Positions 40,625-45,016 of a DNA stretch of 45,596 nucleotides are shown piece after piece. The notes below the pieces were generated by a model. The model made no database searches. It was not told the origin of the DNA and worked only from the letters and a program-made list of their open reading frames with translations. The stretch is from a virus (lineage: Duplodnaviria > Heunggongvirae > Uroviricota > Caudoviricetes), in the IMG/VR virus record IMGVR_UViG_2778261121_000003, positions 1-45,596 of that record, one strand, 5' to 3'. A program made the translations under genes and the position numbers. Position 1 is the stretch's first letter, and every line of letters begins with the position of its first letter.

Positions 40625-41107
40625 ATGGCGATTGTTGTGAAAGCTGATTTGTCAAAAATCCCCTCTATTTCAGGAAATAATGGTTATTCACTTCGTTGTG
40701 AGGAAGTAAAGATAAACGGTGAGTCGGCATATTGCAGCTACTCCGTTTGCCAGCACACCATTCTTGCCTTCAAAGAAAACCGTCTTCCTCGAACTTCATT
40801 CCAGTCGTGCGCAACCGCTATCAAAGCAGGCAAATGCAAGGCGTTAAAAATGATGGTTGAAGAGATTCGTAAAGGAGAATCTCTGTATTTCGAAGATATG
40901 ACCGCGCTCATTAAGGAGGTTGAAGAACGGAATAAACAAGCCAGAACTATAAAACGAAAACGTGACAGCGTAACGATTAATAGCATGGTTAAGAAGAGCG
41001 CCACATCACAAACAGCGATCACTGACGTGTATGCGGCGTTGCTTGAAGAAACAACAAAAGAAACACATGAGCAAATCGATCAACATATGGAGGCAAAACA
41101 ACAATGA
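40625..41107 (+). CDS. hypothetical protein (Cys-rich N-terminal region)
   Basis: 160-aa ORF; several Cys in the first 80 residues; no clear SD; overlaps the ligase start (ATGA). Confidence 0.5.
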   Translation: MAIVVKADLSKIPSISGNNGYSLRCEEVKINGESAYCSYSVCQHTILAFKENRLPRTSFQSCATAIKAGKCKALKMMVEEIRKGESLYFEDMTALIKEVEERNKQARTIKRKRDSVTINSMVKKSATSQTAITDVYAALLEETTKETHEQIDQHMEAKQQ

Positions 41108-42426
41108 AAAAGTTGATCGCACTTAAGCATAAGCTGGACGAAATGAAAGCTATGGGAACCAATGCAAAAAAAGAGGCATTGGCCAACATGGATGACTTCG
41201 AGCAAAGCATGGTTTCATTGATGCTCAACCCTTTCATCCGTTTTGGGGTAAAGAAATACAAAGTGGCAGAGCCGCTTAGTGAGTCCGTCCCAAGTGACGA
41301 AAAAGCCATTGATATACTGAATAAGCTGGCCTCTCGCGAGCTGACGGGGAACGCAGCAATAGTTGCTGTTGAGTCTATCGTGGCGTCAATGTGCGCCGAT
41401 GGGCAGGACGTCTTCCGTCGTTTCCTCTTAAAAGATCCGAAAGCTGGCGTTGGGATTAGCCTATGCAACAAGGTTTTTGAAAATCCCATTCCGAAATTCG
41501 AGGTGCAGCTGGCGTCACCGTATAAAGAAAAAGGCGACAAATACCCCTTCAAGCCAAATCCTAAAGCAAAATGGCCGATGATTGGCAGCCTTAAGCTCGA
41601 TGGTTTGCGAGTAATTTGCGAGGTTATTGTTGACGAAGAAGAGGTTAACTTCCTTTCTCGTACTGGTAATCCAATCACGTCTCTCGATCACCTAAAGCCA
41701 GCCATGCTCGAATTAGGCAAACTTTCAGGCCACAAACACATCTTCTTCGATGGTGAAGGAACAGCCGGTTCATTTAACCAGTCCGTATCTGCATTGCGCA
41801 AAAAGAACGTGCAGGCAATTGGCGCTATTTATCATGTTTTCGACTTCTTCCTACCGGAATGGCGGGCACAGGCTAAATCCAAAGAGTATGCAAAGACAGG
41901 TATGAAGCTGAAAGAGCGCCTGGCTATGCTCGTGGCGTTGTTCAAAAACGATCGCAGTGAAGACTACGCGCAAGACATTCACCTGCATCCGTTCTACATC
42001 ATCCATAGCCACGAAGACTTCATCGAACGCTTCATGAAACGCCTGGACGATAACGAAGAAGGGGAGATGGGCAAAGATCCGAACTCTGTTTACGAGTTTA
42101 AACGTACCCGCAGCTGGTGGAAGTTAAAAGACGAAGATTCAGAAGATGGTGAAATTATCGACTTTGAGCCGGGCGACCCGGACTCTGGTTTTGCCAACAC
42201 GCTTGGAAAAATTGTTATTCGCCTTGAAAACGGTGTGATTGTTCGTGCGAGCGGCATTAAGCATAAATATCTGGACGAGATCTGGAACAACAAAGAGAAG
42301 TACCGTGGTCGTATTGTTGAGGTTCATTGTCACGAGAAAACACCGGATGGCAGCTTACGCCACCCACGACTGAAATGGCCGCGTTGCTTACGCGATACAG
42401 AAGATCGAATCGGAGATAAAGAATGA
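41104..42426 (+). CDS. ATP-dependent DNA ligase
   Basis: 440 aa; adenylation motif I KLDGLR (IGSLKLDGLRVICEV). Confidence 0.85.
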   Translation: MKKLIALKHKLDEMKAMGTNAKKEALANMDDFEQSMVSLMLNPFIRFGVKKYKVAEPLSESVPSDEKAIDILNKLASRELTGNAAIVAVESIVASMCADGQDVFRRFLLKDPKAGVGISLCNKVFENPIPKFEVQLASPYKEKGDKYPFKPNPKAKWPMIGSLKLDGLRVICEVIVDEEEVNFLSRTGNPITSLDHLKPAMLELGKLSGHKHIFFDGEGTAGSFNQSVSALRKKNVQAIGAIYHVFDFFLPEWRAQAKSKEYAKTGMKLKERLAMLVALFKNDRSEDYAQDIHLHPFYIIHSHEDFIERFMKRLDDNEEGEMGKDPNSVYEFKRTRSWWKLKDEDSEDGEIIDFEPGDPDSGFANTLGKIVIRLENGVIVRASGIKHKYLDEIWNNKEKYRGRIVEVHCHEKTPDGSLRHPRLKWPRCLRDTEDRIGDKE

Positions 42427-42950: not shown

Positions 42951-43237
42951 GCAATTTAACTTCTTTGGAATGGTGGTTGGCCACCTATTTCTTAGCGGCC
43001 GGAGTCGCATTCGCCTTTTACGTAGGTCAGTTAGTCGTAAAACTGCTGCTGATTAAATTTGCCAGTCATAAACGTATCGATGATGGTCTGTGGCGTCTTG
43101 GCACCCTGGTGGAAACTCGCTACGGGCAACTTAAGGAGAACGAAACCATTACTATCCAAGCGAAACGGTTCACTGCGACCATCACAAGAACACCTAGTCG
43201 TAGAGTGGGCTTGATCAAAAAAGTCACAACCGAATAA
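42947..43237 (+). CDS. membrane protein (possible third paralog)
   Basis: 96 aa; N-terminal TM (WWLATYFLAAGVAFAFYVGQLVV); ATGA overlap with the upstream ORF. Confidence 0.55.
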   Translation: MSNLTSLEWWLATYFLAAGVAFAFYVGQLVVKLLLIKFASHKRIDDGLWRLGTLVETRYGQLKENETITIQAKRFTATITRTPSRRVGLIKKVTTE

Positions 43238-43245
43238 AAACATAT

Positions 43246-43268
43246 CAATAAGTATTTACTTACTTATC
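43246..43268 (+). promoter_or_regulatory. conserved intergenic motif (CAATAAGTATTTACTTACTTATC)
   Basis: Motif-family member at the start of the long noncoding/tRNA region; candidate promoter for that region. Confidence 0.35.
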
Positions 43269-44012
43269 TTTTGTGTATAAGATGACTTTGTTTTCGTTGA
43301 GACGCGACTGTTTGAACTTAAATACAAGTGCAAACGAAGAAGTCTATCTGGCAGTAGCCTAATAAGCCAAACACCAGCGAGGTCAGTTTCCAGCCTCGTT
43401 ACCGAAATGGGACACACTGAGCGAGTGTGATTGCAGAACGCAGGAGGGAACATGAGTGTTCCCTCCGATGAAGTAACGGAATGGGCGGTCGGTATATTTT
43501 CAACTCCATATGACTCTCGGATTCTTAGCCACTGACCGCCCATCCTGTTACGTCATTTTGTTCAATTATGTCGTTTATACTGGGTTAAAAGCGGCGACGT
43601 AGCCCGGCTGGTATGGTTAGCCAGCACACAACGTTGAGGCCATTACATTTTTATCAATTCTAAGGTTCTATTCACAGAGATACCGGCGAGCGTTGATATG
43701 TAACATGTTGGGCAAACATTCAATCGGAGTAGTGGCCTCAACGTTGTGAAGACAGGATTGTTGTGTAGGTTTAACCACTGTTGCCATTGGTGCCTGTTTT
43801 CACAACAAATGATTCCATACATCATATTGTATAAATTACAAAGTAGGTGCTGTCCTCAGAAACATCATCTACTTAAAGATTTAGCCTTCTATTGAGCGAA
43901 GTCGAAAGCGTCTGGCACTAACGTAAAGTGCAAGTAGCAGTGCGTTTCCTGGCAGAAACTAACACCGCCGCGATTGGCACTGTTGAGTAATAAATACTGG
44001 CTGTGCCGAATT

Positions 44013-44087
44013 GATGGTGTAGCTCAGCGGTAGAGCAGTTGGCTGTTAACCAACTGGTCGGTGGTTCGAATCCACCCACCATCGCCA
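44013..44087 (+). tRNA. tRNA-Asn (anticodon GTT)
   Basis: Manual cloverleaf: acceptor GATGGTG/CACCATC, anticodon stem GTTGG/CCAAC with loop CTGTTAA, T-arm GGTGG-TTCGAAT-CCACC, encoded CCA. Confidence 0.8.
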
Positions 44088-44092
44088 ATTTA

Positions 44093-44179
44093 GGGGAGTT
44101 AGTCCGTAGAGGTAGCGGTGTAGACTGTAAATCTACTGTCATGGCGACTCGGGTGGTTCGACTCCATCACTCCCCACCA
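44093..44179 (+). tRNA. tRNA-Tyr (anticodon GTA), long variable arm
   Basis: Manual cloverleaf: acceptor GGGGAGT/ACTCCCC, anticodon stem GTAGA/TCTAC with loop CTGTAAA, long variable arm, T-arm GGTGG-TTCGACT-CCATC, encoded CCA. Confidence 0.75.
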
Positions 44180-44183
44180 AATT

Positions 44184-44259
44184 GCCGGTTTAGCTCAGTT
44201 GGTAGAGCAGTCGCTTTGTAAGCGAATGGCCAGCGGTTCAAGTCCGTTAACCGGCACCA
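44184..44259 (+). tRNA. tRNA-Thr (anticodon TGT)
   Basis: Manual cloverleaf: acceptor GCCGGTT/AACCGGC, D-arm GCTC...GAGC, anticodon loop TTTGTAA, T-arm AGCGG-TTCAAGT-CCGTT, encoded CCA. Confidence 0.75.
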
Positions 44260-44751
44260 ACATAATATTGAGAACATTGGCGTAACGGGGTCATATCCCA
44301 ATCTATGAATAAATGTTGCGTTGCAGCGTGACAACCAGTGTTCTCAACATTGTGGTGAATGCACAGGCTGATGTGCCGCAACTACAGTAGTGCGCGCTTT
44401 GCGGGGCTTGCTACAACCCTGTGTCGGAGATCAGCACCGACCATCACAATTTGGCTCTCTTGCAACAGCATAACGCTGAAATATGTCCAACCTGGTGCGG
44501 CCTGTTCACCCGCCGTTAGCTCCACGAAACGGAGCGCACAACAGGAAAGAGCATTGAGAACCGCCGAGACTGCCCTGTTTGAAGCGTAAGTCCGTGCAAA
44601 CGTCATACAGTGCTCTTTTCGTTGTGGTTGATGCGCAGACTGATGCGCGGAAAGAAATGCCCCAGCGACACACGAGGCGAGTTCACACACTGCATTGCAG
44701 TCAGTAGCCGGGGTCGCTAAGCCGGAGTTCAGTACCGGTAACCACAACAAT

Positions 44752-44838
44752 TGGAGAGTAGGGAGCATGGTGCTCAAGCGGTCTTGAAAACCGTCCCATT
44801 GCGCAAGCGATGATGGTTCGATTCCATTACTCTCCGCC
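44752..44838 (+). tRNA. tRNA-Ser (anticodon TGA), long variable arm
   Basis: Manual cloverleaf: acceptor GGAGAGT/ACTCTCC, anticodon stem GCGGT/ACCGT with loop CTTGAAA, long variable arm, T-arm GATGG-TTCGATT-CCATT, encoded CCA. Confidence 0.75.
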
Positions 44839-44993
44839 AGACACAGCGTTGAGCGGTTTGGCCTTTTAATCACCCAGATTAAGACTCCGCTAACATAAAC
44901 CAGACCGCTCAACGCTGTGATAGACAATTACGTCAGACTTTCTTAACCATAGCTTGATAACATCCTAGCAACACTTTTTTCATCGCAAAATTC

Positions 44994-45016
44994 AAAGGGG
45001 CTTCGGCCCCTTTTTT
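44994..45016. terminator. rho-independent terminator (likely bidirectional)
   Basis: AAA-GGGGC-ttcg-GCCCC-TTTTTT between the tRNA cluster (+) and the 3' end of minus-strand gene 45032..45553. Confidence 0.7.

Follow-up and report, generated by a model that had tools for sequence, protein, structure and literature searches.

The stretch of DNA analysed here, which we call the window, comprises positions 1-45,596 of the IMG/VR virus record IMGVR_UViG_2778261121_000003 (45,596 nucleotides, nt), and its matches suggest a relative of the SSU5/pHCM2-type phage-plasmids: the DNA closest to positions 43200-45000 is that of the Escherichia phages CMS-2020a and Cyrano (96-98%) and of many ~110-kb E. 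coli plasmids. Our subject is about 740 base pairs (bp) of it, 43270-44012, directly upstream of a tRNA cluster, and above all the first ~155 nt of RNA that would be made from it, a module at 43290-43444 (+) that resembles the tag-coding part of transfer-messenger RNA (tmRNA). A non-coding + strand locus of ~1.75 kb begins with these 740 bp; the gene block ahead of it, a ligase-like open reading frame (ORF) at 41104-42426 followed by small ORFs up to 43237, runs in the same direction, as do the tRNAs and the terminator behind. The first-pass annotation saw no plausible ORF in the region, and indeed it holds just short overlapping ORFs on both strands. Its suggestion of a structured non-coding RNA or a tRNA-precursor leader was right in kind, the region lying on the + strand between a promoter-like site and tRNA-Asn and having covarying stems, but too generic, as it missed that the first module looks like a tmRNA derivative with a tag frame and an arm complementary to tmRNA. 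In our proposal a structured-RNA operon on the + strand opens with the 740 bp; it would be transcribed together with, and end in, the tRNAs and the terminator.

The tmRNA-like module and its tag reading frame

The module and its putative promoter comprise the following features.

43255-43283 (+): putative sigma-70 promoter P1, with TTTACT at 43255-60, a 17-nt spacer and TAAGAT at 43278-83; RNA start expected at about G43290
43290-43314 (+): putative antisense 'docking arm', GUUUUCGUUG-AGAC-GCGACUGUUU-G
43315-43329 (+): A-rich linker before the resume codon; the A at -4 is 43326
43330-43365 (+): tmRNA-like tag frame with no start codon, GCA AAC GAA GAA GTC TAT CTG GCA GTA GCC TAA TAA, giving ANEEVYLAVA and two stops
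43349-43369 (+): helix-5-like hairpin, UGGC 43349-52 with GCCA 43366-69, its loop holding the last tag codons and the stops (RNAalifold)
43378-43412 (+): pseudoknot a, with P3 formed by CGAGG 43378-82 and CCUCG 43394-98 and the loop UUCCA 43388-92 paired with UGGGA 43408-12
43413-43444 (+): hairpin S1, CACACU 43413-18 with AGUGUG 43424-29, then GAUU and the 3' end of the module

More distant blastn matches, ~77% identical over 43278-43432, fall in unannotated intergenic DNA of unrelated phages: inside the tRNA cluster of Felix-O1-like myoviruses, between pR'/qut and the late terminator of the P22-like phage HK620, and upstream of tRNA-Ser in the Klebsiella siphophage Carvaje. Two pattern scans of IMG/VR and one scan of GTDB genomes, plus plasmid matches, brought the family to ~180 loci with 69 unique module sequences, which fall into five or six lineages: A, SSU5-like plasmids (pHCM2/pMT1 type), including the window; B, Felix-O1-like phages; C and C2, HK620, 40-55-kb siphophages and Pseudocitrobacter; D, 80-110-kb contigs; and E, the chromosome of Alteromonas sp. 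IB21 and marine viral contigs. R1, a covariance model based on 23 members, finds one copy per locus at 66-166 bits, the window match being 43289-43444 at 148.8 bits, and gives no match at the E. coli ssrA locus. The module is carried by 258 of 5,426 complete E. coli genomes, with no RefSeq annotation there. The permuted-tmRNA and beta-tmRNA models of Rfam align the resume and tag stretch in three lineages, with E-values of 0.031 to 1.2, 0.025 and 0.0013, always below threshold (14.5-29.9 bits against 47 for RF04321); the standard tmRNA model RF00023 likewise gives 10.3 bits against 47. At permissive E-values, Rfam searches of the window and two relatives gave just tRNAs and such sub-threshold tmRNA matches, the snoRNA, miRNA and plastid matches being noise.

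The -10 element TAAGAT of P1 is kept in SSU5-like relatives and stands at the identical distance before GTTTTCG in Felix-O1-like phages, whose -35 is a perfect TTGACA (Michonne). A promoter consensus scan of the region did not pick P1 up, and we infer the assignment from these comparisons.

The family members differ in their surroundings. The pMT1 plasmid of Y. pestis (NC_004835; L107 1313-1790) keeps the tmRNA-like module, with the tag ANEDTYLAVA, and the first hairpins behind it, and lacks the tRNAs; its locus is interrupted shortly past the equivalent of hairpin X (described below), where the F1 capsule operon (caf1R, caf1M) comes next. To judge from this layout, a plague virulence operon seems to have been inserted at the RNA locus. 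We considered sR082, listed beside sR083 in Y. pestis small-RNA (sRNA) sequencing tables, as a transcript of the pMT1 module and rejected it, as sR082 maps next to ymt. In Alteromonas sp. IB21 (L132 5900-6660, minus strand) the module is chromosomal and follows a terminator, with no tRNA within 8 kb and at least 600 nt more of non-coding sequence behind it in which a GGGCGUUUUGAGAA motif is repeated. The gene directly upstream of the module-bearing tRNA cluster of Michonne (L002 1-836) is annotated 'RNA-binding protein, DUF2828'.

The tag frame of the window can be set beside the ANDENYALAA of E. coli tmRNA. Throughout the family it has no in-frame start; an in-frame TGA lies upstream in pHCM2-type members and an in-frame TAG in HK620. 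The 25 distinct tag DNAs encode 13 peptides with the consensus AN[DE]xx[YF]LA(A)VA, and their third-position changes include GAA/GAT/GAC, TAT/TAC, TTT/TTC, GCA/GCC and GCC/GCT/GCG. Codons 4 and 5 vary throughout, residue 6 is Y or F and nothing else, and the stop is TAA, TGA or TAG, often with a second stop right after. Ahead of the resume codon, all 69 unique members have an A at -4 and at -6, and position -5 is U in 62 and C in 7. Positions -4 and -5 correspond to A86 and U85 of tmRNA, the first of which is nearly universal there and essential for frame choice, while U85C is tolerated (PMC2481249). The variation of the phage tag is, as far as the alignments tell, that of real tmRNA tags, and at the level of sequence comparison the homology of the tag frame and its codon-like evolution are shown, evidence for coding-type selection. 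The supplement of the tmRNA database holds nothing on phage or Alteromonas tags. Elsewhere in the window, TCTGGCACTAACGTAA (43911-43926) and TCTTGCAACAGCATAA (44458-44473) resemble the end of the tag, TCTGGCAGTAGCCTAA (43347-62), and may be degenerate remnants of the template or chance matches.

Behind the tag, one covarying H-type pseudoknot is present in all lineages. Among the 69 unique sequences, its stem P3 has five fully compensated variants and the loop pairing of pseudoknot a has seven covarying ones (CCGA/UCGG, CCAA/UUGG, CCAG/CUGG, CUCCA/UGGAG, GUCU/AGAC, UUCCA/UGGGA and UUCCA/UGGAA); S1 has seven covarying variants, and S2, a second pseudoknot stem formed from the S1 loop in lineages B, C and E, has five. 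S2 was not found in lineage A, the window's own, and no equivalent of pseudoknot 1 (PK1) of tmRNA was established in the module. The 3' strand of the helix-5-like hairpin is GCCA, GCUA, GUCA or GCCG, all of which pair with UGGC; its support is of the wobble type alone because its 5' strand is coding. Helices were counted by anchored parsing; column counting on alignments A1 and A2 was unreliable, the loop of lineage A being one base out of register. A closing helix between the 5' and 3' ends, NGUUU/AAAUN', covaries but was set aside, as it overlaps a pseudoknot strand and its 5' base perhaps lies upstream of the transcript.

The module has no acceptor stem, T-arm or CCA and no alanine-charging site. 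ARAGORN, which calls E. coli ssrA, makes no tmRNA call for the window or for seven related loci. Since the modules of lineages A and B begin directly after the promoter, there is no room for an acceptor strand, and a blastn-short comparison of the flanks (the window, two Felix-O1-like loci, HK620, Carvaje, two further C-lineage, two D-lineage and three Alteromonas loci) found no second element common to the lineages save a short hairpin-B match between HK620 and the window. Lacking a tRNA-like domain, the RNA could neither be charged nor enter a ribosome alone. The T-loop-like UUCAACUCC at the apex of the long hairpin (43495-503) matches the T-loop of E. coli tmRNA and was rejected as it is not conserved, and a tmRNA_permuted match in Michonne was rejected because it uses the T-arm of the neighbouring tRNA-Ile. 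In Carvaje (L003 2630-2712) the long hairpin right behind the module has a perfect T-arm (AUGGGUUCGAGUCCCAU) beside its 3' strand, making up a tRNA-like mini-helix, which may be what is left of a tRNA-like domain or a variant of one; as a domain shared by the family it was discarded, the other lineages being without it.

The 5' arm and host tmRNA

Across the lineages, the first 25-30 nt of the module are antisense to nt ~67-105 of E. coli tmRNA, a stretch that spans A86, the -1 triplet, the resume codon and codons 2-5. Taking the reverse complement of the invariant 5' motifs, GUUUUCG(U) and GCGAC, gives CGAAAAC and GUCGC, both of which occur in tmRNA. In the window, 43290-43299 pairs with tmRNA nt 95-104 (CGACGAAAAC) and 43304-43313 with nt 82-91 (AAAUAGUCGC, comprising A86, the -1 triplet and the GC of the resume codon), and between the two paired blocks lies an internal loop of AGAC against AAA. 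RNAduplex predictions against host tmRNA are as follows.

Window (lineage A): 20 bp, -26.3 kcal/mol, tmRNA nt 95-104 and 82-91
HK620 (lineage C): 28 bp, -33.6 kcal/mol, nt 68-105
Lineage C2: 25 bp, -32.5 kcal/mol, nt 75-105
Lineage B: 22-23 bp, -22 to -26 kcal/mol, nt 77 or 81 to 105
Lineage D: 21 bp, -24.3 kcal/mol, nt 80-104
Lineage E: 21 bp, -24.2 kcal/mol, nt 82-102

For HK620 the paired region takes in the 3' strand of pseudoknot 1 of tmRNA. Of the 43 distinct arms, 42 choose one common tmRNA site. When the arms were aligned to the reverse complement of tmRNA with Watson-Crick pairs only, 0-2 of 1000 shuffles matched the arms of lineages B, C, C2 and D; in an energy test, 8 of 600 shuffles matched the window arm when allowed to bind at any place in tmRNA (p about 0.013), and 0 of 600 matched that of HK620. 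We thus find conserved, extended complementarity to a defined tmRNA site that is better than chance, the property by which a trans-acting antisense RNA would be recognised. Whether GUUUCG against GUUUUCG in Alteromonas tracks the length of the host tmRNA proved uninformative, as the arm there simply shifts its register and pairs with GCAAACGACGAAA.

The same stretch of tmRNA has been targeted artificially. A synthetic anti-ssrA oligonucleotide, TTAAGCTGCTAAAGCGTAGTTTTCGTCGTTTGCGACTA, which contains AGTTTTCGTC...GCGACTA, blocks the release of stalled ribosomes and is used against tmRNA in ribosome display and cell-free translation (PMC3384345, PMC9029222). Unlike the module, it is man-made DNA, pairs continuously and brings no replacement template. 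Pairing or helix formation around the resume codon inactivates tmRNA.

How the module may act on trans-translation

The reading that we favour, at a probability of roughly 45%, is that the module is a tmRNA-derived RNA without a tRNA-like domain that acts in trans on host tmRNA, whose template it masks and replaces. We arrive at this docking model because the module has a translated-looking template without ribosome entry, along with an arm that would tie that template to the place where the host template begins. The 5' arm would anneal on nt ~82-104 of host tmRNA in the infected or plasmid-bearing cell and put the host tag template out of use; the phage RNA, now tethered beside the host's tRNA-like domain and SmpB, would offer its own A at -4 and its own resume codon GCA; and rescued ribosomes would append AN[DE]xx[YF]LAVA, not ANDENYALAA, and terminate at the stop codon of the phage RNA. 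In the phage tag, the AN(D/E) at the N-terminus and the Y or F are retained and the terminal Ala-Ala is replaced, a motif on which ClpXP degrons critically depend; gammaproteobacterial tags almost always have YALAA (PMC10862746). Since the phage tag is without the Ala-Ala that ClpXP prefers, proteins carrying it would be expected to meet a different fate. That this amounts to a 'tag-swap' RNA of phages and phage-plasmids (S. Typhi pHCM2, Y. pestis pMT1, HK620, Felix-O1-like phages) by which trans-translation is reprogrammed bimolecularly is a tentative proposal, and one that we think somewhat doubtful; it would be the first natural case of its kind.

Several points weigh against the docking model. 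We know of no precedent for a ribosome resuming on a template that is merely base-paired to tmRNA, and the coding piece of natural two-piece tmRNAs holds part of the acceptor stem. Since an LVA terminus makes a good ClpX degron, LAVA-tagged proteins may still be degraded. As for the arm, all pairing figures refer to the tmRNA of E. coli MG1655 alone (resume codon at nt 90); the Watson-Crick-only test is not significant for lineages A (the window) and E, whose pairing uses G·U and loops, and the energy test is weak for D and E, with 34 of 600 shuffles matching. The support for the window arm is its energy and its homology with the other arms, and, all the arms being homologous, tests on different arms are not independent. 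Pairing in cis, of 13-22 pairs between the arm and the module's own tag region, can form as well, so that the true partner of the arm may be intramolecular. Some of the invariance of the tag carries no weight because those positions were fixed by the search patterns. Lastly, a survey of Y. pestis sRNAs has no sRNA at the pMT1 module locus.

The main rival, which we hold to be unlikely, is an RNA that works purely as an antisense or decoy against tmRNA. The arm would block or destabilise host tmRNA, giving less tagging during phage growth or plasmid carriage, and the body would go untranslated, serving either to bind the partners of tmRNA (S1, SmpB, RNase R) by mimicry or to shield the arm in cis. 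All of the complementarity between arm and tmRNA fits this explanation equally well, a synthetic antisense at the tmRNA site suffices to block tmRNA in vitro, and no unprecedented step on the ribosome is required. A partial tmRNA of mycobacteriophage DS6A, consisting of the tRNA-like domain only, is also reported to inhibit host tmRNA, going by the account that cites it (PMC11915505). What a pure antisense or decoy leaves unexplained is the tag, namely its codon-like substitutions, the kept Y/F and LAVA, the in-frame stop that is constant despite its changing identity (TAA, TGA, TAG), and the frame-setting A at -4.

The pairing of the arm in cis is the basis of a further alternative, that the arm pairs with the module's own tag region and its match to tmRNA is a by-product of common descent, the RNA either acting on a target other than tmRNA or being the decaying relic of a captured tmRNA. 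The 13-22 pairs just mentioned can indeed form, and intramolecular pairing is favoured entropically, but host tmRNA is a much better fit in every lineage (-22 to -34 kcal/mol, against just -9 to -16 kcal/mol for arms on the module's own homologous region, the window arm having -12.9). The motifs GUUUUCG and GCGAC fit CGAAAAC and GUCGC of the host, not ACGAAGA and AGUGC or AAUGC of the phage, and a relic would not retain covarying pseudoknots across five lineages. We judge this explanation improbable.

Less probable again is an ordinary leader of a tRNA operon, in which the hairpins are elements of processing or stability and the tag is a chance likeness or belongs to an ORF in another frame (xTG-CAA-ACG...TGG-CAG-TAG, 9 codons, reading M-Q-T...W-Q and a stop). 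The region does lie directly upstream of tRNAs in several phages, and its long perfect stems resemble what is generally known of RNase III substrates. The alternative frame begins with ATG in lineages B, C and D, but with GTG or CTG elsewhere, and wherever changes in the tag frame are synonymous they are non-synonymous in this one. The module also occurs without adjoining tRNAs, in the late leader of HK620 and in pMT1, and a match of 20-28 bp to tmRNA would be left unexplained.

A replication origin, as the first-pass annotation had considered, or another element acting as DNA (a cruciform or a recombination site) has the long inverted repeats and the record of the locus as a hotspot of indels and insertions (the caf1 operon here in pMT1, modules gained and lost) to commend it, but is hardly credible given the lack of iterons and of an AT-rich unwinding region (GC 0.41-0.47), the single DnaA-box-like 9-mer in the window, which is below chance expectation, the restriction of tolerated G·U and U·G pairs to the + strand, and the strand-specific tag frame.

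Known systems share parts of this design. With tmRNA (SsrA, RF00023) the module has in common a start-less frame from GCA AAC GA. with an ANDENYALAA-type tag, an A-rich stretch upstream with the critical A at -4, a stop in the loop of helix 5 and pseudoknots after the tag; it differs in having ~155 nt against ~360 nt, no acceptor stem, T-arm or CCA, a tag ending in LAVA rather than ALAA, an arm antisense to tmRNA itself, and scores below every Rfam tmRNA threshold with no ARAGORN call. The coding piece of two-piece tmRNAs (RF01849-51, RF04321) is likewise a separate template RNA that relies on pairing with the RNA of the aminoacylated end, and the permuted-tmRNA models give the module's best, sub-threshold matches. 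Natural coding pieces, however, hold the 5' acceptor and helix-2 strands and have a dedicated acceptor piece encoded alongside, whereas the only partner found for the module is the template region of host tmRNA, with no acceptor piece encoded nearby. The DS6A tmRNA is, like the module, a phage-borne partial tmRNA, but as far as the citing account describes it, it is the opposite half, a tRNA-like domain with neither tag nor antisense arm.

Phage RNAs with other partners are also on record. AgvB and AsxR of Stx prophages are anti-sRNAs or sponges that pair with host regulatory RNA, and RNAs C and D of the T4 tRNA cluster are unexplained stable RNAs co-transcribed with phage tRNAs; none of these is known to target tmRNA or to have a tag frame, and no sequence relation to them was found. 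In Rfam, RefSeq/GenBank annotation and the literature searched we found no such RNA described (tmRNA-like, anti-tmRNA, decoy or of an mRNA-like domain only), nor, in that literature, any natural RNA targeting tmRNA. The pairing of an anti-tmRNA arm with an orphan tag template therefore appears to be a combination for which we found no described counterpart.

Trans-translation is the main bacterial pathway of ribosome rescue and quality control, and the module is common yet unannotated, being present in the classic plasmids pHCM2 and pMT1 and in Felix-O1-like phages, which serve in typing and therapy. If the docking model is true, the module would represent a new viral takeover of a host RNA machine, a natural two-RNA tmRNA in which to study how the ribosome chooses the resume codon, and a ready-made genetic tool for retargeting tagging. 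Even under the minimal reading, a natural antisense RNA against tmRNA, it would stand for a new class of phage counter-measure. Trans-translation is known to matter for some phages: lambda-immP22 hybrids need tmRNA, and the plaque assay that relies on this is used in PMC2481249.

Downstream structures and the rest of the locus

Behind the module, the locus continues with these features.

43443-43466 (+): hairpin, GGAGGGAACA / UGUUCCCUCC, z = -6.25
43467-43557 (+): long imperfect hairpin with a variable apex, 24 pairs, several of them compensatory or G·U, in 22 relatives
43566-43625 (+): two small helices, UUAUGUC 43566-72 / GACGUAG 43596-602 and GCUGGU 43607-12 / GCCAGC 43620-25 (RNAalifold)
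43627-43748 (+): hairpin X, the 16-bp inverted repeat, really a 20-bp stem with an 82-nt apex, z = -6.83
43743-43806 (+): hairpin Y, z = -3.15
43809-43823 (+): conserved 15-nt box ATGATTCCATACATC, before the -10-like TGTATAAAT and the tRNA leader
43824-44012 (+): 5' leader of the tRNA-Asn/Tyr/Thr cluster, with a small hairpin GCACU 43914-18 / AGUGC 43926-30
44013-44259 (+): tRNA-Asn, tRNA-Tyr and tRNA-Thr (tRNA prediction)
Between tRNA-Thr and tRNA-Ser (+ side): further non-coding stretch of ~490 nt
44753-44839 (+): tRNA-Ser, then another long hairpin
44994-45013 (+): strong intrinsic terminator

All of the stem-loops that the first-pass annotation had listed are present within 1 nt of where it placed them. 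CACACT/AGTGTG is the S1 of the module, at 43413-18/43424-29; GGAGGGAACA/TGTTCCCTCC has its true place at 43443-52/43457-66, one base from the earlier position; GGGCGGTC/GACCGCCC, at 43483-90/43534-41, forms the core of a longer inverted repeat, imperfect and of 26 nt (43468-93/43531-56); and the 16-bp perfect inverted repeat at 43627-42/43733-48 extends to 20 nt at 95%. An extra hairpin, 43743-56/43793-806, had been overlooked and has GTTGTG in common with the hairpin before it. Because GUUGUG (43743-48) belongs to both, hairpins X and Y compete.

Folding was assessed segment by segment as z against dinucleotide shuffles. None of 200 shuffles equalled the folds of 43440-69 (z = -6.25), 43466-558 (z = -5.47) or 43625-750 (z = -6.83); 43741-808 has z = -3.15 and 43408-34 has z = -2.44. 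The stretch 43566-43625 alone (z = -0.46) and the hairpin of the tRNA leader (z = -0.17) fold no better than shuffles. The alignment with relatives that had been suggested as a check bears the stems out: they are kept in 18-22 divergent relatives (Salmonella pHCM2, Yersinia pMT1, Klebsiella, Citrobacter, Cronobacter, Buttiauxella, Kluyvera and IMG/VR contigs). In RNAalifold consensus structures, compensatory double changes occur in 10 of the 41 predicted pairs of 43441-43625 (alignment A3) and in 4 of the 19 of the 16-bp-repeat hairpin (alignment A4). Many stem changes across relatives are from G-C to G·U and from C-G to U·G, which argues for a + strand RNA and not a DNA cruciform or a - strand transcript because such wobble pairs are A·C mismatches on the other strand.

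Single structures vary in telling ways among the relatives. The 43443-43466 hairpin has longer compensated forms, such as GGAGAGGGCAUG..CAUGCCCUCUCC, and the GCUGGU/GCCAGC helix has one compensatory change from G-C to A-U. Hairpin X is precisely deleted in one Klebsiella-type relative (L193), hairpin Y is fully compensated in a Klebsiella relative (GUGGUCACGG / CCGUGGCCAC), and the leader hairpin GCACU/AGUGC has two compensatory pairs in the Klebsiella relative. Each of the 55 distinct sequences extracted from lineages A and D has the box at 43809-23 in near-invariant form; together with the -10-like TGTATAAAT it is tentatively a second promoter for the tRNA cluster, for which the promoter scan gave a weak overlapping match alone. 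Overall, 43443-43806 holds five or six conserved RNA structures, and their likeliest reading is as processing or punctuation signals of a polycistronic RNA, which is plausible because 20-bp perfect stems resemble RNase III substrates. The whole of 43443-44012 has the marks of a tRNA leader, lying on the strand of the tRNAs with conserved RNA stems and presumably transcribed with them.

The ORF at 41104-42426 that heads the gene block leading into the RNA locus encodes a 440-aa ATP-dependent ligase-like protein, called 'DNA ligase' in relatives. At the other end, 44260-44750, between tRNA-Thr and tRNA-Ser, is a second block of structured non-coding modules with no Rfam match. The stem bases of its long hairpins, CA(A)CAGGAAAGAGCA...UGCUCUUUUCGUUGUG with a conserved bulge, are nearly the same, and each of these hairpins is followed by a 'GUGGUGAAUGCNCAGGCUGAUG...GAUCAGC..CCACCAC' hairpin, of which there are two copies (44336-81 and 44608-53). 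The same module types also flank the tmRNA-like RNA in HK620 and Carvaje, and whole modules of this kind are gained or lost among plasmids otherwise 90-98% identical. Positions 44244-44555 are 92% identical to phage P1 (NC_005856 69716-70023; L207 901-1208) just downstream of its tRNA-Asn and tRNA-Thr, where the P1 annotation places two hypothetical proteins, Plp and Upl, on the opposite strand; because the RNA hairpins are conserved, these ORFs may be a mis-annotated RNA locus. After tRNA-Ser, 44842-44919 forms a 20-bp hairpin (CACAGCGUUGAGCGGUUUGG / CCAGACCGCUCAACGCUGUG) whose stem base is the same as that of the 43627-43748 repeat (CACAACGUUGAG...), and this shared stem base suggests that the 'punctuation' hairpins form a family across the locus.

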